Assembly (NCBI GenBank): GCA_965214205.1
Contig: OZ243941.1
Location: forward strand, 1,969,419-2,033,418
Direction of reading: 5' to 3'
From: Candidatus Poriferihabitaceae bacterium
GTDB taxonomy: Bacteria > Pseudomonadota > Gammaproteobacteria > Arenicellales > Poriferihabitantaceae
DNA length: 64,000 nt
The notes below the pieces were generated by a model, which saw only the letters and a program-made list of their open reading frames with translations, did no database searches and was not told where the DNA came from. The first letter of the stretch is position 1; every line of letters begins with the position of its first letter. Below, piece after piece: positions 31,291 to 42,455 of this stretch. The translations under genes were made by a program, and so were the position numbers.

Positions 31291-31415
31291 TGATCGTAGG
31301 GGCGGGTCTTGTGCCCGCCCGCGAATGGTGGATACCTGTTCCGACATTGTGGGACGGCACAATCATTCCCCCCTTGAGGGGGAATCACATCGCGCGAAGC
31401 GGGTGTGATGGGGGG
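31291..31415. repeat. REP-like hairpin cluster, left island border
   Basis: GGGCGGG-TCTTGTG-CCCGCCC hairpin. ATTCCCCC-CTTGA-GGGGGAAT hairpin (31365-31385). ATCACA..TGTGAT hairpin (31384-31409). Confidence 0.7.
31300..31332 (+). repeat. 33-bp direct repeat, left copy
   Basis: GGGCGGGTCTTGTGCCCGCCCGCGAATGGTGGA is identical to 42423-42455. No other copy was seen in the window. Confidence 0.9.
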
Positions 31416-31496
31416 AACAACCGTCATCGCTGTACCTGTCCACAAATGTCGAAACGCGCTGGCTCAAGAGTGCGACACCCTCAAACCAAACAGTAC

Positions 31497-31988
31497 TCAG
31501 AATGGATCGTTATCACCCGCGCCAGATAACTCAGTGAAATAGGAAAGCTCCATTCGCTCCTCGAAGAATTGCTTTGCCGTCTGGTTTTCATACTCAATCC
31601 GCTCGGCTGGAATGTTTAAGAGCGAAGCTATTCGGTCTTTTTTCTGAGAAATACGATCAGAAACCAAGTCTGCTTTGTCCTCGAAAACAGGCGCGACAAC
31701 TAATACCTTTAGGTATTCGCTCCGCGTTACGGCTTGTCCAATAAGGCCATTTACATAGTCGTCGCTAAAACTGTATCCAATTACCACAATAAATCTCAGT
31801 GCTTCGTTCAACGAATATTTCCGAAGCTCATGAACATAGAACAGGTACGGATCAATTGAACTCAATTTTTCTGCTGTACCAAAAATCAACTCTGGGTTCG
31901 GTTGGGGATTATCGCAGAGCTTCAAGATATTGCCGTTCGCTTCCTCTCGTTCCCAGTCGATTGATCCGTGGAGTTTATAGAGATACAT
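31497..31988 (-). CDS. SIR2_2-like protein, C-terminal half of the domain only (possible truncated NADase effector)
   Basis: YKLHGSIDW and VVIGYSFSDDYVNGLI motifs characterise SIR2_2-type defence sirtuins. No Gly-rich NAD loop is present. The ATG lies 2 nt after the stop of the upstream ORF, in another frame. Confidence 0.65.
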   Translation of the reverse strand: MYLYKLHGSIDWEREEANGNILKLCDNPQPNPELIFGTAEKLSSIDPYLFYVHELRKYSLNEALRFIVVIGYSFSDDYVNGLIGQAVTRSEYLKVLVVAPVFEDKADLVSDRISQKKDRIASLLNIPAERIEYENQTAKQFFEERMELSYFTELSGAGDNDPF

Positions 31989-31990
31989 AC

Positions 31991-33088
31991 CTACATCAGT
32001 GTTCTCGTTAGCATCGAACTTGGTTGCCTCCCATTCACGACCACTATTAAATCCAAGCTCAATACCAAAAGAAGAACCGCTACGAGCATTATCTTGTCGT
32101 TTGTATACGACGCTTTCAACTCTTGAATCTTCGATTCAACAGCCTCTATTGCGTTCGCGTCGAAGGCTTCTACAAGGTGATGATCAATTATGTCCTTGTG
32201 AATCGGCACTGAAAACATATTCTGAAGACCCGAGAACTGTCCGGGAAAAAGTTTACCCAGCACTCCAAGATATACATCTCTCGCCAATGATCTCGTTCTT
32301 TCTGTGAAAAGGAATAGATATCTAACGTCATCTTCCATCGGGCGATACGGGCCATTCGCCTTGATACCCATGAACTGAGATTTGGCTTTACTTCCCTTGC
32401 CAACCAGATAGGTTTTTACATCGAGATGTTTCGCAGGAAGGCTTTCGAATTCTGTTTCAATCTCAAGAGGTGAAGAGGACATCAACGGTGCAAGTACATC
32501 ACATGAGAATGATTCGATTACTGATTTCTTGTCTTTGTAGAAATAAATATTCGGCTTGCCTGAATTGTCCAACGACAAGCTGCGAATTTGCGTTTGTCTA
32601 TTGAACGGCTCTCCTTCGTTGAGAGAGTACTTGTGCTCCAAAAGGAATCCGAACAGCTCTTTCTCTTTCAAGTAATAGGGCTTGACGACGATCTCCGTTG
32701 CGCCATCTTCGTACCTTTCTGTGACGAACCGAACTTCTTTCAGGGGTATCGCTTTTTTTGGTGTGTAATATTCTATCTCCGCTTCAGTCGACCCCACAAT
32801 ATGGTCAAGCAAATCCGAGTAAATCAGATGGACGGTTAAAACAGAATTCTTGCTGAACCGATAGCTGTACGACTCATAGTTTTCTTTCTCGGATTTTGAA
32901 ACATCAAATAGTCGCCACTCGTCACCGCCCTCATGCGCAGGAAGATTTACACGAAAATCGCCGTCCGCTTTGGGTAGGGAACTATCTTCAACAAGCTTCC
33001 GGTAGATCGTCACACTGCGATCTTGCCTTTTAAGCGGAACGAAATTGAGATTGATATCAGACATGCTCATTTCCTCTGCCAGCCGCAA
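31991..33088 (-). CDS. Uncharacterised 365-aa protein; the C-terminal third resembles the start of a prokaryotic Argonaute MID domain
   Basis: It overlaps the hsdS stop, suggesting translational coupling. NGPYRP..RYLFLFTE..FSGLQNMF..AVESKIQELKASYTNDKIMLVAV parallels, from memory only, the GPF..ILVV..SGF..GIVVL layout at the start of pAgo MID domains. It ends in a hydrophobic tail instead of the rest of MID/PIWI. Confidence 0.45.
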   Translation of the reverse strand: MRLAEEMSMSDINLNFVPLKRQDRSVTIYRKLVEDSSLPKADGDFRVNLPAHEGGDEWRLFDVSKSEKENYESYSYRFSKNSVLTVHLIYSDLLDHIVGSTEAEIEYYTPKKAIPLKEVRFVTERYEDGATEIVVKPYYLKEKELFGFLLEHKYSLNEGEPFNRQTQIRSLSLDNSGKPNIYFYKDKKSVIESFSCDVLAPLMSSSPLEIETEFESLPAKHLDVKTYLVGKGSKAKSQFMGIKANGPYRPMEDDVRYLFLFTERTRSLARDVYLGVLGKLFPGQFSGLQNMFSVPIHKDIIDHHLVEAFDANAIEAVESKIQELKASYTNDKIMLVAVLLLVLSLDLIVVVNGRQPSSMLTRTLM

Positions 33089-34403
33089 TTGGTATGGAAT
33101 TACTAAAAGTCTCCCAAGATAAAGTTCCTATTAGTGTTGATGTCCTGCGACTATTCTCAACAATTTCCGTTGAAAGTGCTTTACAAATATCCAACTGGCT
33201 CTCTAGCTTGCTTACAATCTCATCTTGGTCAATTCGTGGAGGCAAAGGAATCAGTGCGTTTGCCACAATCCCTTGATTGATTTTTGGCATGCTCTTCTGC
33301 GCTCCGGTTGCATTAGAGCGGAAGTACTTACGAGAGAATGGGCTTGTAAGAACGTAATGCAGGTACTTGAGAGACAGTTGCTTTGCAAATCTCAACTTCA
33401 TCATTAGATCGGGGTAAATAAATTCGTAATCTTCACCCGTGTATATGGCGGACACCCCCACGTGCTCTAACGAGTTACTTCTTTGTATAAGGATGTCACC
33501 CCTTTCCAACCACAAGTGAGAGTCTTCAGGAATATCCTCATCTATATACTTGATCTGAGAACAATCAAAACTTCCACTCGTAGTCGCTCCTAACTTCAGT
33601 GTTTTCGTTTGCGTTTCAAAGTCTACTGTCTTCGGCGAGTATCCGTTTCTAGGATTTTCATACAGTAACTCACCTAATCGGCACCATTTCCAACTCTTCG
33701 GCAATTCAAACGGTTTTTCTTCATCACTGATAGCTAGTAGAGGCTTTTGCTTTTTCATTTTCTTAACTTTTATCAAGTCGGCTTTTTCAGCAGCGATGTC
33801 TTCCAGCAGTTTGCTGACAGGCTCTACTTTTTGGCTGGTAGCGCGCCAGTCTGTTGTGAGTTTGCCTTCGATGGCCTCCTGCAATATTTGTTGGCGAAGT
33901 TCTTTTAGCAATCCCCGCTGATGAACTAGCTCGCAGTCAAGTAAATCCTTAATTCTTAGAGTGCTCTTGAGCTTTCCAATCCAGAATTCTTGTTGATCGA
34001 TATCGAGATATGGAATTTTATACTTCTTGAAATTCTTCTGATTTATAGACTCTTTCGAAGTACCTGACTTCGTTGCTGAAACCAAGACTGGCCTCAGGGA
34101 GTTGAATACAAAGTGATAGAAACTAAGATTCAGGGGGTACTTGTTGTCGTCCTTTGGCGTAAGGATAAAACACAGATCACTACTCGTGAATTTTCCATCC
34201 ACATAATGCGTGCGCCCGAGTGATCCCGAAGCGGATCCGGCAAAAACAAGCGCTTCACATTCATGGGAATACTCAGTATGAGTCTTCCATTCTTCTGCCG
34301 CTGTAATGAAATCGAACTCACCAGCCAAGCACTTAGTACTTTGCAGGCTTCCTTTTTCAAGATCAAAAAGCGTACCGATGGGCAACATCATGTTTGACAT
34401 CAA
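33057..34403 (-). CDS. hsdS: Type I restriction-modification specificity subunit HsdS
   Basis: 448 aa with two target-recognition halves separated by a coiled-coil spacer (LLKELRQQILQEAIEGKLT). ATGA overlap with hsdM. Confidence 0.9.
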   Translation of the reverse strand: MMSNMMLPIGTLFDLEKGSLQSTKCLAGEFDFITAAEEWKTHTEYSHECEALVFAGSASGSLGRTHYVDGKFTSSDLCFILTPKDDNKYPLNLSFYHFVFNSLRPVLVSATKSGTSKESINQKNFKKYKIPYLDIDQQEFWIGKLKSTLRIKDLLDCELVHQRGLLKELRQQILQEAIEGKLTTDWRATSQKVEPVSKLLEDIAAEKADLIKVKKMKKQKPLLAISDEEKPFELPKSWKWCRLGELLYENPRNGYSPKTVDFETQTKTLKLGATTSGSFDCSQIKYIDEDIPEDSHLWLERGDILIQRSNSLEHVGVSAIYTGEDYEFIYPDLMMKLRFAKQLSLKYLHYVLTSPFSRKYFRSNATGAQKSMPKINQGIVANALIPLPPRIDQDEIVSKLESQLDICKALSTEIVENSRRTSTLIGTLSWETFSNSIPIAAGRGNEHV

Positions 34404-35822
34404 CCCAACTCCTTTCGCAATTTCCCAAGCAATTCATCGCCTTTCAAAAATGACTGGTGCAGCATATCGAGCAATTCTGCGCTGCTGTGCTGTTGCTCTT
34501 CTTCAGGCTGGTGAGGATTCTTAAGATCGAGGTTGTAACCACTGGCTTTGATCGTTTCAAAGTCTACCTGCCATGCTGCTTCGCTCTCTTCTCTGTTAAC
34601 CCACCAATGTTTCAATCCATCGAACTCTACACCCTGAATAGGTTTTGTCTTTGAGTATGCCTTGTATCCTTCAGGCAGCTTGTGCTGGTAATACCAAATC
34701 GTCTTTGTCTGCTCACCCTTGCTGAAAAAAAGCAAGTTAGTCGCTACCGCCGCATAGGGCTGAAATACCGAGTTGGGTAAGCGCACAATCGTGTGTAAGT
34801 TGCAATCTTCAAGTAGTTTTTCGAATACATTGTTTTACACCATCACCCGTAAGCGACCCATCCGGCAAAACAATGGCTGCACGAGCACCCTTTTTGAGTA
34901 GATGAATCATCAAGATCAGAAATAGGTCTGCCGATTCCTTCGTCCGATAAGTCAGCGGGAAGTTATTTTCGTTGTTGTTGGAAACAACTCCGCCGAACGG
35001 TGGGTTTGCCAAAATAACATCTACACGATCTTTCCGTGTGTATTCGGTTAAGGGTCGCTCCAGTGAATCACCATAGCGGATCGAGGGAGTGGTTATGTCA
35101 TGTAATATGAGGTTGGTATTTGCGAGCAAGTATGGAAGTGGTTTGTATTCCCAGCCTCTAACATTCTTGCCGATAGCCTTACGCTCGGCGACGTTCTTTG
35201 CCGTCTGCTTAAGGTGCTCGATAGTTGCGGTCAAAAAACCGCCCGTACCACACGATGGATCAAGTATTGTTTCCCCATGTTGCGGATCGACTAATTCAGT
35301 CATCAACTCTGTCAAAGCACGCGGCGTATAAAATTCCCCTAACGTCCCCGCGCTTTGCAGTTCACTCAGGAATGTTTCATATATCTGCCCAAAAACGTGC
35401 TTGTCTTTACTATTATTGAAGTCGACCTCATTGAGCTTGTTGATAACCTGCCGAAGATGGATGCCAGACTTCATGTAGTTATAGTTATTGTCGAAGACTT
35501 CATGCACCAAGAAAGCGCGTTTATTTCCGGTTGAGAGGTCGATATTCGATAGGGTTGGGAATAGCTTACGATCTACAAAATGCAGCAGTTCGTCCCCTGT
35601 CATTCCCTCATCATCACCTGCCCACTCATCCCAATGAAGCCCCTGAGGTATTGGCGAGGTGTAATCGTCATCCAGCAATTCCAGCTCTTTGTCCTTATCA
35701 CTGAAAATCTTGAGGAATAGCATCCAGCCCAACTGGAGAATGCGCAGCTCGTCACTTCCAGTCCCCGTATCCTGCCACATGATTTTTCGCACTGATTTGA
35801 CTATTCCTGGAATATTGCTCAT
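34400..35822 (-). pseudogene. hsdM: Type I R-M N6-adenine DNA methyltransferase HsdM, interrupted by a +1 frameshift
   Basis: Motif I DPSCGTGGF and motif IV NPPFG lie in the 337-aa ORF. The conserved continuation ..KLLEDCNLHTIVRLPNSVF.. is in the adjacent 128-aa ORF. The frames meet at an A5 run (T5 at 34817-34821 on the + strand). Confidence 0.85.
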
Positions 35823-35825
35823 GCG

Positions 35826-37949
35826 TCAGGCTCCCCAATGCTCTTTTTCGTAGGCGCTTTGATCTTCACGGCTCAATGGCTGCGATGAACAGCCTGTTCG
35901 GACGAAGAAGCCTTCTTCGCCTTCGAAGGTTACGAATACCGGCTTACCGCTCTTGGCAACACGAATGCGGCATATTTGAACATCGTCATAAACAGGAAAA
36001 GTCACCTTTATGTGTGTGCTGTAGCCTCCGCCGATGTATTTCTTGATGATTTCAACAAGATGCAGCTCAAACCCATCAATGTTCTTCTTGCTAAGCGTCT
36101 CAATGTCATCCGTGAGACCGAGAGCATTCTGTTCATCGTCAATACCGATAAACAAATCTCCGCCTTCACTGTTAAGGAATGCAGCAATCGTTTTTGCTAT
36201 AACGTATTCGAGCTTTTTGTTTACGGATTCCGTCCGCAAGTCATAACGAAGCGTGGATTTGAATTCGACCCTGTCACTTTCACCAGCCGTTACTAATTCC
36301 TGAACCTCTTCGTTGGCAGGCTCCTTGTGGCTGAGCTCGATACGCACTTTCAATTCGTCGAAGATAAGCTTAGCGCGCGCCTTCAGGAACGTGTCGTAGT
36401 CATCACTCTCAATACCAAAGCCATTGATATCAATGAAATGAGAATTTAACGCCTTATTGATAGCGGAGTTTTCATCACTGAAATCACCGATATAGCTGGA
36501 AGGTGGTCTCGCCCGAATAGCGCGTTTGTTCAGGCGGTCACCGACAAAAGTGATGTTGACGAGGCTATTGCTGTTTGCAACTTCTTTGTTTTCAAGATAC
36601 TTCTTTGGAAAGAAGTGGTGGTAGTTTTTGCTGCTGGCGATTTTTAACCACGAATTGTCAAGAATGACCCTCCCGTTATCCTGGAAATCCTTTGGCTCCT
36701 GATATGCCAAAAGGCAAAGAACTGCTTTGCAGTAGCTGTTTCCCGCACTGAAATTGGTCTCAATGAGCGCTTTAGGTGAATCAAGGTCAACCTTAATGTC
36801 ACTATAGTCGGGACGCTGGTTCTTTAATATCAGGTCAATTCGTTTGATATCCTGCGCTAACCGAGACTCCGTTGAGCTTGAATAGCGATACGATAGCGAC
36901 ATCCTCCAGAAATATTCTTCCAAATACTTCCGTTGGTCGGACTCCGGCTTTTCCTTGTTCAGGAAAAAGAAGTAAGCAAAAGGCACCAAAAGCGAGTCAT
37001 ACGGAAGAAGCTGCGAGACGGGAATTCGATATGTCGTGCGAAAATAGTCAATACTGTCTTTGAGGGCGGAGATAGCATCTTCCCATTTGTCAATAATCGC
37101 CTGCTTGTCGAGTGCCAAAATTGTCTTGCGCTTACATTCTTTGGTTCGACTCAGCACCAGAGAAAGCAAACTCAGAATTACCGTGCTGTATACGCCCTCA
37201 TACTTAATCGCCTCCAGCTCCTTTATGAAGGCTTCCCATTTTGCCTGCATGTCGAACTTCTGCTCTTCGTCATAAGTCTTCGCAGACATAATCTCAAAGA
37301 GCGTTAGCGTCTGGCCGCCCGTATTGATGCGCGTAAATACTTCAATTGCAGAATCAATGTCCTCTTTAAGTAGGACAACAGTCGAAAACGTATAGGTCTT
37401 AAAAGCGGTGGAATATGCGTCTATCAACTCCAATTCGTCTCCACTGAATTCTTCGGAAAGTTCTCTTGCCTTGCTGTAACTGAAGTTCAAGACATCAGAC
37501 AAAGAGATATACTTCTCTCCGCTCGGTTTGGCTGTAATGACTTGATCGTCATTTTCACCAAGGTTCTTGTCGAGGTTCACGACAATACCGCTATAGTCCG
37601 TTATTTTCTTTTCGCCTGTCTTTTGAATCTGTGCACCGCGGTAAGCGGCAAATAGTGACGTTATTCGCTGCTGGCCATCGAGGACATATTGAACCTTTGT
37701 TCCTTCCGGCGTTTCCGGTATCTCAAGATTTCCAACATTCTTGATATCATTAATACGCTCATCGGTCTGCCAAAGAATGAATGTGCCAATCGGATAGCCC
37801 TTCAAAATACTATCTAACAGCTTGGCCGTCTTATCGATACTCCAAACGAACTCGCGCTGAAACTTCGGAATTTTGATTATTCCTTTCTGTATCTCATTAA
37901 TGAGATCAGAGTATTTCTTCGAGTCCGGCTTGGGCTGTTCAAAATTCAT
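35826..37949 (-). CDS. GmrSD-like DUF262 / His-Me-finger (DUF1524-like) protein fused to a C-terminal AlbA_2 (Schlafen-like) domain
   Basis: N-terminus: IPKFQREFVW ... DGQQRITS. Middle: NYHHFFPKKYL..NSLVNITFVGDRLNKR. C-terminus: ESDRVEFKSTL...AAFLNSEGGDLFIGIDD...FFVRTG. It is nested between hsdR and hsdM with 14-nt and 3-nt gaps. Confidence 0.82.
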   Translation of the reverse strand: MNFEQPKPDSKKYSDLINEIQKGIIKIPKFQREFVWSIDKTAKLLDSILKGYPIGTFILWQTDERINDIKNVGNLEIPETPEGTKVQYVLDGQQRITSLFAAYRGAQIQKTGEKKITDYSGIVVNLDKNLGENDDQVITAKPSGEKYISLSDVLNFSYSKARELSEEFSGDELELIDAYSTAFKTYTFSTVVLLKEDIDSAIEVFTRINTGGQTLTLFEIMSAKTYDEEQKFDMQAKWEAFIKELEAIKYEGVYSTVILSLLSLVLSRTKECKRKTILALDKQAIIDKWEDAISALKDSIDYFRTTYRIPVSQLLPYDSLLVPFAYFFFLNKEKPESDQRKYLEEYFWRMSLSYRYSSSTESRLAQDIKRIDLILKNQRPDYSDIKVDLDSPKALIETNFSAGNSYCKAVLCLLAYQEPKDFQDNGRVILDNSWLKIASSKNYHHFFPKKYLENKEVANSNSLVNITFVGDRLNKRAIRARPPSSYIGDFSDENSAINKALNSHFIDINGFGIESDDYDTFLKARAKLIFDELKVRIELSHKEPANEEVQELVTAGESDRVEFKSTLRYDLRTESVNKKLEYVIAKTIAAFLNSEGGDLFIGIDDEQNALGLTDDIETLSKKNIDGFELHLVEIIKKYIGGGYSTHIKVTFPVYDDVQICRIRVAKSGKPVFVTFEGEEGFFVRTGCSSQPLSREDQSAYEKEHWGA

Positions 37950-37963
37950 TCAATGTTTCCTGT

Positions 37964-40351
37964 TCATGCAGCGTTGTAGATTGCCTGCTCAAGATTGGTT
38001 ACGGCCATCCTGTATTGATTCTTGCCGCCGAATAAACTGACAATTTCTATCGGGGTGCCAATTTCATCAAATGGATTCACCGTCAGTATCTTGATGTCTT
38101 CGATATTCTCGATACCTTCATCAGCGTACTTATCCAATAACGCTTCAAGCACTTGTCTGGCCTGCTCACCGTACTTTGTGAAATAGTCACGCTTCTTCAC
38201 GTTGTTCGCTCTCTCGGCTCTCGTGAGCGGTGGCTGGTCAAAAGCAGTATGACAGATCAAATCAAAGATATCCATTTCCTTACTGATTGTCTCTTTTAGA
38301 TTTTCAAAGACGAGCCCCTGCTCGGTTAGCTCGTCGATGATGGCTTGCTTTCTCTCTGCTGAATGCCACTTATTCAGGAAGTCGTCCAAAGACGCAAAAT
38401 GTTCTCTGACTTTTTGTCTGGTGTAATCTCTCAGGCTTCCAGTGATTAGTTTGCCATTACCATTCAGGTACTGAACGCGCTCGTTGAGAATGGCGACATT
38501 GATGCCATTTACGTAGTATTTAGGTCTCGGCTCGCCGATGCTCTCTCCGCCCGCGGTTATCTCCGGCTCCTGTGGTATTGGATCGAAAATTACGGCATCA
38601 CCATCTTCATCAACCACGTCTTCAGCTTCTTCGATCTCTTCTTCGTATGTGTCGAACTCATCAGATTCTTCGAGTTCTTTGATCCGTACGGGATCACCAT
38701 CAAAATCAGTATCAGCGAATAGATCGGTAACATTGCGGAAGTCCATAATCGTGAAAAATTTCTTGCCATATTCTTCATTTATGCGGGTTCCACGACCGAT
38801 AATTTGTTTGAATTCGGTCATTGAACCGATGTTGCTATCCAGGACGATCAACTTGCAAGTCTGTGCATCGACTCCGGTGGTCATCAGCTTGGAGGTCGTT
38901 GCGATAACAGGATAGTCTTCTTCCGGGTTGATGAAGTTATCCAACTCACGCTTGCCTTCTTGATTATCCCCAGTAATCTGCATGACATACTTGCTATTGC
39001 TAGCCATGAGGTCGCTGTTTGCATTCGCGATTGCGGAGCGCATTCTTTGTGCATGGTCAATATCAGCACAGAAAATAATCGTTTTGTCGGAGCGGTTGGT
39101 CTTCTTCAAGAACTCCGTCACCTTGTCAGCGACCGTTTGTGTACGCTCATCTATGACGAGATTTTTGTCGAAGTCTTTTCGGTTGTAGATACGATCCTCG
39201 ACCACAAGCCCCTGCTTGTCTGTCTTCCCTAACTCTGGCCTCCAGCCCTCCAGATCAACATTCAATCCGACCCGAAGCACTTTGTAGGGAGCAAGGAAAC
39301 CGTCTTGTATTCCCTGCTTGAGGGAGTACGTATATAGCGGCTCGCCAAAATACCCGGTACTGGAAACCGTTTCTGTTTCTCTGGGTGTGGCAGTAAGGCC
39401 AATATGCGTCGCACTATTGAAGTAGTTCAAGATTTCGCGCCAAGCGCTGTCTTCCACCGCGCTGCCCCGGTGGCACTCGTCAATAATAATCATGTCAAAA
39501 AATTCTGGACTGAATTCCCGATAGGCATCTTTGTCTTCGTTGTAGTCCGTGAGACCTTGATAAAGCGCCAGATAAATCTCGTAGGACTTGTCTATTTGTT
39601 TATGCTTTACGACCGTCATTTTGTTCTTGAAATGACGGAAGTCACCGCGCCTGGTTTGGTCAATGAGAGCATTTCTATCAGCAAGGAACAGAATTCGCTT
39701 TTTTGTTCCGCTCTTCCACAGACGATGGATAACCTGGAATGCCGTGTAGGTCTTTCCAGTACCCGTCGCCATGGTCAGTAAAATTCGAGACTGACCTTTG
39801 GCAATTGCTTCAACGGTTCTGTTGACAGCAATTTGCTGGTAGTAACGCGGGGTTCTCCCCGAACCATCGAAAAAGTAGTCTTGGGCACTAATTCTTTCTT
39901 GTTCTTCTGTTTGAATGCCTTTGTATTTTTTATAGCGTTGCCAGAGTTCCTGTGGTGATGGGAAGTTGTCGAGCGCTAACTCCCTTTCGATGTTTCCGTC
40001 ACTACATGTTCGGTCATGCTCGTAGAAAGCATCGCCATTGCTGCTGTAAACAGTTGGGATGTCAAGAATTCTAGCGTAATTCAGCCCTTGTTGAATTCCA
40101 GCATTGATGGAGTGTTTGTTGTCTTTGGCTTCAATGATTGCAATAGGAATATTGGGCTTATAATAGAGAATGTAGTCCGCTCGTTTCCTCTTGCCTCTGG
40201 TAGTCAAATTGCCCTTTACGTAGATTCTTCCATCCGTAAATGACACTTCTTCGCGGATTTGCGTCTGCATATCCCAGCCCGCTTTCTCCAGAGCCGGACT
40301 AATGAATTTCGAGCAAATATCGCGTTCTGATAAGCTTTTCTTTGAGGTCAT
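37964..40351 (-). CDS. hsdR: Type I restriction endonuclease subunit HsdR
   Basis: N-terminal PD-(D/E)xK-like region (IIEAKD), helicase motif I MATGTGKT and motif II DECHRG, 795 aa. Confidence 0.93.
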   Translation of the reverse strand: MTSKKSLSERDICSKFISPALEKAGWDMQTQIREEVSFTDGRIYVKGNLTTRGKRKRADYILYYKPNIPIAIIEAKDNKHSINAGIQQGLNYARILDIPTVYSSNGDAFYEHDRTCSDGNIERELALDNFPSPQELWQRYKKYKGIQTEEQERISAQDYFFDGSGRTPRYYQQIAVNRTVEAIAKGQSRILLTMATGTGKTYTAFQVIHRLWKSGTKKRILFLADRNALIDQTRRGDFRHFKNKMTVVKHKQIDKSYEIYLALYQGLTDYNEDKDAYREFSPEFFDMIIIDECHRGSAVEDSAWREILNYFNSATHIGLTATPRETETVSSTGYFGEPLYTYSLKQGIQDGFLAPYKVLRVGLNVDLEGWRPELGKTDKQGLVVEDRIYNRKDFDKNLVIDERTQTVADKVTEFLKKTNRSDKTIIFCADIDHAQRMRSAIANANSDLMASNSKYVMQITGDNQEGKRELDNFINPEEDYPVIATTSKLMTTGVDAQTCKLIVLDSNIGSMTEFKQIIGRGTRINEEYGKKFFTIMDFRNVTDLFADTDFDGDPVRIKELEESDEFDTYEEEIEEAEDVVDEDGDAVIFDPIPQEPEITAGGESIGEPRPKYYVNGINVAILNERVQYLNGNGKLITGSLRDYTRQKVREHFASLDDFLNKWHSAERKQAIIDELTEQGLVFENLKETISKEMDIFDLICHTAFDQPPLTRAERANNVKKRDYFTKYGEQARQVLEALLDKYADEGIENIEDIKILTVNPFDEIGTPIEIVSLFGGKNQYRMAVTNLEQAIYNAA

Positions 40352-40406
40352 CCGCTAGCTCGCTTTATTTCTGTTTACGCAACACATCCCGTCACTTTAC
40401 TATCAT

Positions 40407-40432
40407 TCGTTTAAGGAATCGTTTAAGGAATC
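40407..40432. repeat. Tandem 12-bp repeat (2 perfect units plus 2 nt)
   Basis: TCGTTTAAGGAA TCGTTTAAGGAA TC, in the AT-rich divergent region between hsdR and the AbiEi gene. Confidence 0.9.
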
Positions 40433-40494
40433 TCTGATTAATTTACTCTCTATTGTATAATGATTTTTAATTCTTTAATGGCGGGAGATTTCTT

Positions 40495-40599
40495 ATGATT
40501 CGCCGGAGTACATTTTCCGCGATTAGGTTTGGTAAATACAGTAAGAAAACGCGCAAGGGCAACCCACGGCACTTTGGCATGAAGGTCCTATTGGCGTAG
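40495..40599 (+). CDS. Candidate 34-aa basic small ORF (below the ORF-track cutoff)
   Basis: ATG at 40495 preceded by GGGAGA with a 6-nt spacer. TGTATAAT at 40454-40461 lies ~35 nt upstream. Translation: MIRRSTFSAIRFGKYSKKTRKGNPRHFGMKVLLA. Confidence 0.22.
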   Translation: MIRRSTFSAIRFGKYSKKTRKGNPRHFGMKVLLA

Positions 40600-40655
40600 A
40601 CAAACCTGTAATATTCAGATTTTCCTTAAATTTATTTTGATTTTGTGTTAGTTTC

Positions 40656-41501
40656 ATGGTTATGAACCAACCAAGAACACCAAGATTAAAACCACTGCTT
40701 GAGGCGTTCCCCCCAGGATTAATCGTAGATACGACATGGCTGAAGGCTCGGGGTATCGACTCAAAATCCATCCATGATTACGTCGCGCGCGGATGGATCA
40801 AGCGTGTGACCCGAGGCGTATACCGCCGTCCACCACCAAACGGTGCACGGGCTGACGACTTGTCCTGGCAGGTGGTCCTTATCTCACTGCAACAACTCAT
40901 GGGCCACGATGTGCATCTGGGAGGGGAAAGTGCGCTGGAATTCGAGGGCCATGTTCACTATTTGGAACTGGGAGTGATGGGACCTGTTCATCTTTACGGA
41001 AACACACCTTCGTGGATTAAGCGCCTGCCAACTACGAGACGGATAGCGCTGCACCGCCCCGTTCTTTTCAGTGGGGATCTGACAGGGATTGAAGAGACCG
41101 ATGGTCGGGATGGGGAGGACGAGTGGGTCGCGCATGTCTGGCGCTGGCCCATGAGGCTATCGTGCCCCGAACGTGCTATCCTGGAAGCGATTGGTGAACT
41201 GCCGAACAAAGCAAGTTTTGAGCACGTTGACCGGATATTTGAGGGCCTGACAGGTTTGCGTCCCAGACTACTCATGGAGCTCTTGGCGGCCTGTCGCAGC
41301 ATCAAGGTTCGGCGGCTGTTTTTCGTATTCGCGGAAAGACACGGACACGGCTGGCTAAAACACGTGGAACCCAGACGGGTTGACCTCGGAAACGGACCGC
41401 GGTCTCTGGTTCGGGACGGCAGGTTCCACCCAACCTACCGTATCTCCGTTCCCGAATTCCTCATCCCCGTGAGACAGATGGACGCGACTGGCGGTGCTTG
41501 A
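40656..41501 (+). CDS. AbiEi-like type IV toxin-antitoxin antitoxin / transcriptional regulator
   Basis: N-terminal wHTH-like segment (TTWLKARGIDSKSIHDYVARGWIKRVTRGVYR). 8-nt overlap with the downstream nucleotidyltransferase gene. Confidence 0.72.
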   Translation: MVMNQPRTPRLKPLLEAFPPGLIVDTTWLKARGIDSKSIHDYVARGWIKRVTRGVYRRPPPNGARADDLSWQVVLISLQQLMGHDVHLGGESALEFEGHVHYLELGVMGPVHLYGNTPSWIKRLPTTRRIALHRPVLFSGDLTGIEETDGRDGEDEWVAHVWRWPMRLSCPERAILEAIGELPNKASFEHVDRIFEGLTGLRPRLLMELLAACRSIKVRRLFFVFAERHGHGWLKHVEPRRVDLGNGPRSLVRDGRFHPTYRISVPEFLIPVRQMDATGGA

Positions 41502-42405
41502 TCGATACGTCGCGCAGGTACGTCTGTTGGTGGACATGCTACCCGAGGTTGCAGCGGAATCCGATTTCGCGCTCAAGGGCGGCACTGCCATCAATCTGTT
41601 CTACCGTAACCTGCCAAGACTATCGGTCGACATTGACCTGACCTGGCTCCCGGTCGCCGATCGCACAGCTTCACTCAGGGAGATTGATAGCGCTCTTAAC
41701 CGCATCGTTACCTCAACCAACCGGAACAAACCTCGGATTACGGTAATTCGCCCGATGGGTGGTGGAAATAATGACACTAAAATATTGGTGAGGCGCGACC
41801 GCGTGCAAATTAAGATCGAGACTTCACCAGTGGCAAGGGGCACCGTGTTCCCGCCAAAGCAGATGGAGGCATCCGAGTCTGTCATGGAGCAGTTTGGATT
41901 CGTGGAATCACACGTGCTCGCTTTCGAGGATCTGTATGCCGGTAAACTCGTTGCCGCTCTTGACCGCCAGCATCCGCGCGACCTGTTTGATGTCAAGCTA
42001 CTTTATGAAAATGAGGGGCTTACCGATAAACTTTTCCGCACATTCCTGGTATATGTTTCTGGTTCTCGAAGACCAATGCACGAGCTACTAGCGCCTGTTT
42101 TGCCATGCTGGGGCGACCGGTATGAAACCGAGTTTACAGGCATGACCCGGAATCCGGTTTCATCAGAAGCGCTCCTTGAGACGGGACGGTATCTGCATAG
42201 TGACATCCGAGCACGGTTGGCAGGCAGGGTTGCAGACTTTTTGCTCTCACTCCACGACGCCCAGCCAGACTTCGGATTAATTGGGTTGCCTGAGGCCGTG
42301 GAATTACCATCGGTACGCTGGAAGCTACTAAACCTTGAGAACCTGAAGACAACCAACCCTGTCAAACATGCAATGCAGCGCAACGCTCTCGAGCAACTGC
42401 TGTGA
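41494..42405 (+). CDS. AbiEii/AbiGii family nucleotidyltransferase toxin (DUF1814)
   Basis: LKGGTAINLFYRNLPRLSVDIDLTW nucleotidyltransferase motif, 303 aa. Confidence 0.85.
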   Translation: MLDRYVAQVRLLVDMLPEVAAESDFALKGGTAINLFYRNLPRLSVDIDLTWLPVADRTASLREIDSALNRIVTSTNRNKPRITVIRPMGGGNNDTKILVRRDRVQIKIETSPVARGTVFPPKQMEASESVMEQFGFVESHVLAFEDLYAGKLVAALDRQHPRDLFDVKLLYENEGLTDKLFRTFLVYVSGSRRPMHELLAPVLPCWGDRYETEFTGMTRNPVSSEALLETGRYLHSDIRARLAGRVADFLLSLHDAQPDFGLIGLPEAVELPSVRWKLLNLENLKTTNPVKHAMQRNALEQLL

Positions 42406-42422
42406 TAAATAATCTAAATTGC

Positions 42423-42455
42423 GGGCGGGTCTTGTGCCCGCCCGCGAATGGTGGA
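42423..42455 (+). repeat. 33-bp direct repeat, right copy
   Basis: Identical to 31300-31332. Confidence 0.9.

Follow-up and report, generated by a model that had tools for sequence, protein, structure and literature searches.

Schlafen tRNases have only recently been shown to act in bacterial immunity. According to that study (Perez Taboada et al., Nat Microbiol 2026, PMC13056530), prokaryotic Schlafen (pSlfn) domains are Mn-dependent tRNases that need an Ex4(E/D)xK motif and act as effectors, and the domains fused to them are proposed to act as sensors. The corresponding catalytic signature of SLFN11 is Ex4ExK, and mutation of the signature in RorSlfn5 abolished both tRNA cleavage and defence (PMC13056530). 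Fusions of a DUF262 domain to a Schlafen domain make up 1.8% of the 5,930 pSlfns catalogued there and form class pSlfn7. One member, EcoSlfn7 of E. coli UC4224, acted alone from its native promoter against a broad set of phages; the effect was greatest for T7, whose plating fell about 540-fold, and DUF262-Slfn gave the broadest protection within the study (PMC13056530). GmrSD-like genes, which encode DUF262 proteins, have been described inside type I restriction-modification (R-M), Hma and BREX loci, the examples being RloF, TgvAB, BrxU and HEC-05/06 (bioRxiv 10.1101/2024.01.29.577857; bioRxiv 10.1101/2024.04.04.588119), and mutation of the DGQQR and (D/E)H motifs in BrxU and HEC-06 abolishes defence (bioRxiv 10.1101/2024.01.29.577857). 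Both the DUF262-Schlafen fusion and the nesting of GmrSD-like genes in hsd operons are thus already known. Here we analyzed a gene that combines the two, located in a 64,000-nucleotide (nt) stretch of contig OZ243941.1 of Candidatus Poriferihabitaceae bacterium (GCA_965214205.1, positions 1,969,419 to 2,033,418; hereafter the window), and refer to its product as P0001.

We consider it somewhat probable that P0001 is an anti-phage protein of the pSlfn7 type, in which a BrxU-like His-Me finger DNase gated by nucleoside triphosphate (NTP) is fused to a Schlafen RNase, as predicted from sequence and from a structural model. The gene and its predicted parts (aa, amino acids of P0001) are the following.

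35826 to 37949, minus strand: P0001, BrxU-like GmrSD core plus C-terminal Schlafen/AlbA_2 domain (open reading frame (ORF), Pfam, PADLOC, AlphaFold2, Foldseek).
37278 to 37910, minus strand: DUF262/GmrSD_N (ParB-like NTPase) domain, aa 14-224 (PF03235, E 6.5e-33).
36660 to 37277, minus strand: alpha-helical linker, aa ~225-430 (AlphaFold2 helices; collinear with BrxU residues 225-362).
36330 to 36659, minus strand: DUF1524-like His-Me finger nuclease domain, aa ~431-540, with H444-H445-F-F-P (nt 36606-36620), N465 and N474 (family profile against BrxU, fold, conservation).
35874 to 36281, minus strand: Schlafen/AlbA_2 domain, aa 557-692, with ESDRVEFK (nt 36258-36281) and GIDD, aa 602-605 (nt 36135-36146) (PF04326, E 1.7e-15).

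Translation confirmed an uninterrupted 707-aa ORF at these coordinates on the minus strand, the plus-strand reading being full of stops. A preliminary description of the window, made from the letters alone, had proposed this ORF, and every peptide motif that it quoted was located in P0001: FQREFVW at aa 30-36, DGQQR at aa 91-95, HHFFPKKY at aa 444-451, ESDRVEFK at aa 557-564 and FFVRTG at aa 681-686, to which VNITF...RLNKR (aa 464-476) and GGDLFIGIDD (aa 596-605) can be added. The three-part architecture that it had proposed also held: PF03235 and PF04326 matched strongly, and the His-Me finger, for which PF07510 stayed below threshold, is backed by the BrxU profile, the fold and conservation. 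A defence role, likewise suggested there, is supported by homology.

The GmrSD family is defined, in the account of papers citing Machnicka et al. 2015, by an N-terminal DUF262 domain with QR, DGQQR and FxxxN motifs, and P0001 carries all of them (Q31-R32; DGQQR at nt 37665-37679; F205xxxN209). In addition, its KLLDS (aa 43-47) aligns with RLFDS, the nucleotide-binding/dimerisation motif that marks the BrxU subfamily. Conservation was counted over 191 aligned relatives, with identity to P0001 down to about 26%; Q31, R32, S47, the whole of DGQQR and N209 were each present in 191 of 191 sequences, and D46 in 187. The catalytic motifs of all three enzymatic modules are kept across this set, down to 26% identity. 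The best PADLOC models for P0001 were PDC-M55C (aa 5-534, E 1.6e-64) and HEC-05 (aa 14-538, E 2.6e-33), the latter being BrxU according to Payne et al. (bioRxiv 10.1101/2024.01.29.577857). An 80-sequence family alignment, A3, served as the source of a family profile and of an AlphaFold2 model. Against BrxU (Protein Data Bank (PDB) 7p9k), the profile gave E 6e-36, with two stretches of collinear similarity that span the DUF262 and His-Me domains. The model, a check that the preliminary description had recommended, reached a mean pLDDT (predicted local distance difference test) of 89.6 and a pTM (predicted template modelling score) of 0.71 and displayed a BrxU-like core followed by a Schlafen-like C-terminus; Foldseek placed BrxU (E 9e-14, 615 aligned columns) first among matches to the core, ahead of SspE and DndI. 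An NCBIfam search of P0001 returned nothing useful, a literature search pairing DUF262 with AlbA_2 found nothing, and PDC-M55 was not mentioned in the literature searched.

BrxU is therefore the best match of P0001 by both profile and fold, with DUF262 domain, helical linker and His-Me finger collinear in the two proteins, and with QR, KLLDS (RLFDS-like), DGQQR, FxxxN and (D/H)H..P...N...N motifs in common; both genes are also embedded within another defence operon. The two differ in that structural alignment gives only about 17% identity, the residues before Pro are DH in BrxU and HH in P0001, P0001 alone carries the extra ~165-aa C-terminal Schlafen domain, and BrxU sits in BREX, not in type I R-M. 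On the strength of these comparisons, the ParB-like DUF262 NTPase/sensor, the helical linker and the His-Me finger DNase together are predicted to form a BrxU-like GmrSD core.

Within this core, the His-Me finger was the part that required most support. The definition of the GmrSD family further includes a C-terminal DUF1524 His-Me finger, with the catalytic His closing beta-1, an Asn in the loop and an Asn/His in the helix, and NTP-dependent cleavage of modified DNA. At E<=0.01, PF07510 (GmrSD_C/DUF1524) was matched by 20 of the 80 family members, the best at 7.9e-6. In the profile comparison, the HHfFPk of the family aligns with the HIYPK of the BrxU DHIYP motif, and two downstream Asn residues align with Asn residues of BrxU. 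H444 and N465 were found in all 191 relatives, N474 in 190 and H445 in 189. The model places strands at 443-445 and 466-468 and a helix at 471-478, the elements expected of a His-Me finger. Because the family-level PF07510 matches, the BrxU profile match, the AlphaFold2 model, Foldseek and the near-invariant H/H/N/N set agree, we accept a DUF1524-like His-Me finger as a predicted part of P0001.

The C-terminal domain carries a complete Ex4ExK motif (E557-S-D-R-V-E562-F-K564) and a downstream D604, so that P0001 has both features that define a pSlfn, the Schlafen/AlbA_2 domain and Ex4(E/D)xK. The catalytic lobes of SLFN11 and SLFN12 align in sequence with this domain, and D604 falls opposite the first D of GVDD in pig SLFN11, the counterpart of which we take to be the catalytic D252 of human SLFN11. 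Foldseek with the C-terminus of the model returned DIP2311, the SAMD9 tRNase domain and SLFN13/11/14/12/5. Like P0001, mammalian SLFN11/13/14 and the SAMD9 tRNase domain combine the AlbA_2 fold with Ex4ExK and Asp; P0001 has a single AlbA_2 unit as opposed to the two-lobed mammalian Schlafen core, and its partner is a GmrSD core as opposed to a helicase and others. The motif and the Asp are kept in ~165 of ~170 relatives bearing the domain (about 97%), and also in a haloarchaeal full-length homologue with 26% identity. A second large protein search with aa 545-707 returned only the same family, and a cluster look-up for distant Slfn-bearing relatives gave no informative names.

Relatives with other C-termini pointed to the role of this position. 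The nearest 50%-identity clusters consist mostly of proteins of ~540 aa, whose C-terminus coincides exactly with the point at which the Schlafen domain begins. Four relatives (P0252, P0223, P0253 and P0142) have the same DUF262/His-Me core and carry other modules in place of Schlafen, either HEPN_Swt1 with DUF5655 and/or DUF4268, or DUF4268 with DUF4357; the Swt1-like HEPN assignment has marginal Pfam scores (E 1.3e-5 to 1e-3). By these domain assignments, the core family has interchangeable C-terminal modules, and one core can be joined to a Schlafen or to a HEPN RNase domain. Fusions of ParB(DUF262), HNH and HEPN, such as VNG7073, were described earlier (Anantharaman et al. 2013, PMC3710099) and resemble P0001 in that an RNase-superfamily domain comes after a core of the same kind, this domain being Swt1-like HEPN there and Schlafen in P0001; P0252, P0223 and P0253 are the HEPN fusions of this type in our set. 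Since two unrelated RNase folds follow the same core, the position C-terminal to it appears to be an effector slot, and since the complete Ex4ExK and Asp are conserved in nearly all relatives bearing the domain, it is likelier that the Schlafen domain acts as an RNase effector than that it serves recognition. The preliminary description had assigned recognition to AlbA_2, an idea that these results, together with the tRNase effector role of pSlfn domains (PMC13056530), speak against.

Taken as a whole, these data suggest how P0001 might work. The gene would be transcribed together with hsdR, hsdM and hsdS, and the protein would oligomerise through DUF262 and the linker as BrxU does, given that KLLDS is conserved as the equivalent of RLFDS. 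By analogy with BrxU and SspE, NTP binding and hydrolysis at DGQQR would link detection of invading nucleic acid to activation of the effectors. The His-Me finger would then cut DNA and the Schlafen domain tRNA or other RNA, halting translation, as the intact, near-invariant motifs of both domains suggest. In this scheme two independently active nucleases would answer to one ParB-like NTPase switch, uniting restriction by a DNase and abortive infection by a tRNase in one protein, which we propose only tentatively. If it is true, the unusual conservation for a defence gene (dN/dS, the ratio of nonsynonymous to synonymous substitution rates, about 0.03) would mean that P0001 recognises an invariant feature of nucleic acids and not a fast-evolving phage protein. 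Throughout a very large and highly conserved family, the DUF262 partner is predicted to be a full GmrSD enzyme of the BrxU type that has a conserved His-Me site as well; DUF262-Slfn proteins as a class are therefore probably DNase-plus-RNase dual effectors rather than simple sensor-effector pairs.

The preliminary description could not say whether this fusion had been characterised; it is in fact catalogued as pSlfn7, and one member is anti-phage (PMC13056530). Since class pSlfn7 is defined by DUF262 and Slfn in one polypeptide, P0001 falls within it, both Pfam domains lying in the 707-aa ORF. EcoSlfn7 and its class share with P0001 the DUF262 domain, a Schlafen domain with Ex4ExK, the single-gene format and a location in defence islands; P0001 was set beside EcoSlfn7 by Pfam-level architecture, and the available text of the study mentions no His-Me/DUF1524 domain and no mechanism for EcoSlfn7 (PMC13056530).

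Several observations weigh against the dual-nuclease prediction. PF07510 matched neither the whole of P0001 nor its middle 323 aa, and with a 140-aa piece (aa ~405-545) alone it scored 18.8 bits (E 0.0016), short of the 23-bit threshold. Where BrxU has DH and HEC-06 has EH, with an acidic residue immediately before the catalytic His, P0001 has HH, and therefore its DNase activity is not assured. AlbA_2 domains can serve as nucleic-acid binders only. With regard to EcoSlfn7, blastn of the P0001 gene against complete E. coli genomes gave no match; tblastn of the Schlafen domain against plasmids gave no Escherichia match.

The HH residues and the sub-threshold PF07510 score would fit a protein with a single effector, in which the Schlafen RNase acts and the DUF262/linker/His-Me core senses nucleic acid or NTP, binding DNA without cleaving it, much as fused domains are treated as phage sensors in PMC13056530. 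We regard this arrangement as unlikely, because little or no variation is seen at H444, N465 and N474 among the 191 sequences, PF07510 does match a quarter of the A3 members, and the ~540-aa relatives among the 191, which have no C-terminal effector, must act via the His-Me site.

The converse arrangement, which corresponds to the model of the preliminary description, is a GmrSD-type, modification-dependent type IV enzyme with the His-Me finger as sole effector and AlbA_2 as a non-catalytic reader of modified or foreign nucleic acid; it strikes us as rather improbable. It draws on the whole-core similarity to BrxU, a cutter of modified DNA, on the SAMD9 AlbA_2 domain, a Foldseek match that binds DNA (7ksp), and on TgvAB-like GmrSD genes nested in type I R-M loci, which target hypermodified phages (bioRxiv 10.1101/2024.04.04.588119). 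Against these stand the intact and conserved Ex4ExK and Asp and the HEPN RNase domains that follow the same core in other relatives. EcoSlfn7, moreover, is strongest against T7, a phage with unmodified DNA.

It is very improbable that the P0001 gene is decaying along with a dying island, as a passenger with no current function here: the neighbouring hsdM is frameshifted and a nearby pAgo-SIR2 (prokaryotic Argonaute and SIR2) pair has lost 1.45 kb, but the P0001 frame is intact, 93-94% identical to its relatives, and under low dN/dS (0.03 against the relative L001, 0.14 against L020), and we rejected this pseudogene-like reading on the intact frame and low dN/dS. The prediction of a BrxU-like DNase fused to a Schlafen RNase remains the one we favour.

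The surroundings of the gene are those of a type I R-M operon, with Pfam and NCBIfam identifying its neighbours as HsdR, HsdM and HsdS.

37964 to 40351, minus strand: hsdR, intact EcoAI/FtnUII-family type I restriction subunit, 795 aa (NF046051, Pfam).
34400 to 35822, minus strand: hsdM, split by a frameshift into 34809-35822 (337 aa) and 34400-34786 (128 aa) (N6_Mtase).
33057 to 34403, minus strand: hsdS specificity subunit, 448 aa (Methylase_S, PADLOC Specificity_I).
31300 to 42455, no strand assigned: low-GC defence island lying between the copies of a perfect 33-nt direct repeat (repeat, GC content, AbiE, pAgo remnant).

HsdR scored 1188 bits with NF046051 and matched ResIII and EcoEI_R_C in Pfam. 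The hsdR stop and the P0001 ATG are 14 nt apart, with an AGGAAA purine run within the spacer, and the P0001 TGA is followed by CGC (3 nt) and then by the hsdM ATG, so that the spacers and the nesting inside the hsd operon are as the preliminary description had them; the order hsdR, P0001, hsdM, all on the minus strand, is a case of same-orientation nesting in type I R-M. A promoter and terminator scan from hsdR to hsdM gave no convincing promoter or terminator between the genes. Because of the two short spacers and the lack of an intervening terminator, co-transcription of P0001 with hsdR, hsdM and hsdS is a reasonable inference. TgvAB and RloF are comparable in that a DUF262-family gene lies within an hsd operon in the same orientation (bioRxiv 10.1101/2024.04.04.588119); they differ in that TgvAB consists of two proteins without a Schlafen domain and RloF lies between hsdR and hsdS.

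In hsdM, positions 2-200 and 212-310 of N6_Mtase are spread over the first and second ORF, respectively. Alignment with four intact relatives showed the gene to be 2 nt short within 34780-34830, beside an A-run near 34817-34821, and in L001 both halves share one frame. Since hsdM dN/dS against L001 is only 0.02-0.07, the frameshift is either a recent mutation or an assembly error. The preliminary description had also suggested that P0001 might back up the broken R-M system, a proposal that fares poorly given such a frameshift and the location of most relatives outside hsd operons.

Among species genomes with adequate flanks, at least 7 others show the hsdR-X-hsdM nesting seen here, and in an eighth case (L032), on a cut contig, hsdM lies directly downstream; in three verrucomicrobial loci the gene is downstream of a type I system. 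Most homologues lie elsewhere, next to other defence genes, insertion sequence (IS) elements and housekeeping genes; recorded neighbours include MmeI/type ISP enzymes, NERD, AbiH, AbiE, ABC-type ATPases, IS elements and, often, housekeeping genes. In the gene tree the nested genes fall into two groups, and non-nested ones are interspersed with these. At the non-hsd loci, DNA homology to the window begins at the ATG and stops at the stop codon.

One locus of the same genus, L020 (93% nt identity), has no hsd genes and yet retains ~25 nt from the 3' end of hsdR together with the 14-nt spacer (L020 6975-7000 and 9125-9144). This copy is flanked by a CbbQ/NorQ-like gene on one side and by an MT-A70 methylase/BglII-like type II R-M pair on the other, which suggests that it was carried out of a type I operon on a cassette corresponding almost exactly to the gene. 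Because of the varied contexts, the homology limited to ATG-stop and the L020 remnant, the P0001-type gene is, by genomic comparison, an autonomous module that both enters and leaves R-M neighbourhoods; although it lies inside a type I R-M operon here, it appears not to depend on that operon.

The family is widespread. A search that scored 8,000 candidates gave 5,212 clusters at E<=1e-3, and the best 120 clusters were all about 707 aa long with 78-97% identity. Among species-representative genomes, proteins with 63-94% aa identity occur in Gammaproteobacteria, Thermodesulfobacteriota, Nitrospinota, Dadabacteria, Verrucomicrobiota and further groups, and in the same range in Bacteroidota, Calditrichota, Zixibacteria, Candidate Phyla Radiation (CPR) groups and a Nitrosopumilus metagenome-assembled genome (MAG), more than 12 phyla in all. 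The gene tree conflicts with taxonomy in the largest clade. In the genus of the window, the gene is present in 3 of 8 genomes, one copy being truncated, and among 17 other genomes of the same taxonomic family 1 has a match, partial and of core type only. DNA identity is about 70% where protein identity is about 80%, and dN/dS of P0001 against L001 is 0.03-0.05 in each of four segments (dS ~0.9-1); the low DNA identity and the dN/dS of 0.03 argue for strong purifying selection beyond recent spread alone. The family thus appears to be widespread, horizontally transferred and strongly conserved by purifying selection. A search of IMG/VR viral contigs yielded no close relatives, and phage records gave distant or partial matches only, so that no phage vehicle was identified. 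A Peregrinibacteria MAG (L047) and a Rikenellaceae MAG (L037) encode identical family proteins, which could reflect very recent transfer or a binning error. Outside the window, the same genome contains a second, distant DUF262-family frame (G000:C1:846120-847886; L071/L072) with one in-frame TAG and 23-33% identity to P0001.

The hsd operon itself is part of a larger defence island. A perfect 33-nt direct repeat (GGGCGGGTCTTGTGCCCGCCCGCGAATGGTGGA) at 31300-31332 and 42423-42455 brackets the whole island, which contains AbiEi/AbiEii, the hsd operon with the nested P0001 gene and a pAgo-SIR2 remnant. The guanine-plus-cytosine (GC) content is 44-47% between about 32000 and 41000, as opposed to about 55% in the flanks; the hsd block is low in GC and the AbiE pair is GC-normal. 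For this genome, the practical outcome is an ordinary annotation, that of a mobile defence gene in a defence island that has partly decayed. At 31497-33088 of the minus strand, a pAgo-like ORF of 365 aa, corresponding to the N-terminal half only, adjoins a SIR2_2-like ORF of 163 aa. Comparison with L001 revealed that about 1.45 kb (L001 13531-14977) is deleted in the window, fusing the front of Argonaute to the back of the next gene, and by this comparison the pAgo-SIR2 system is predicted to be dead in this genome.

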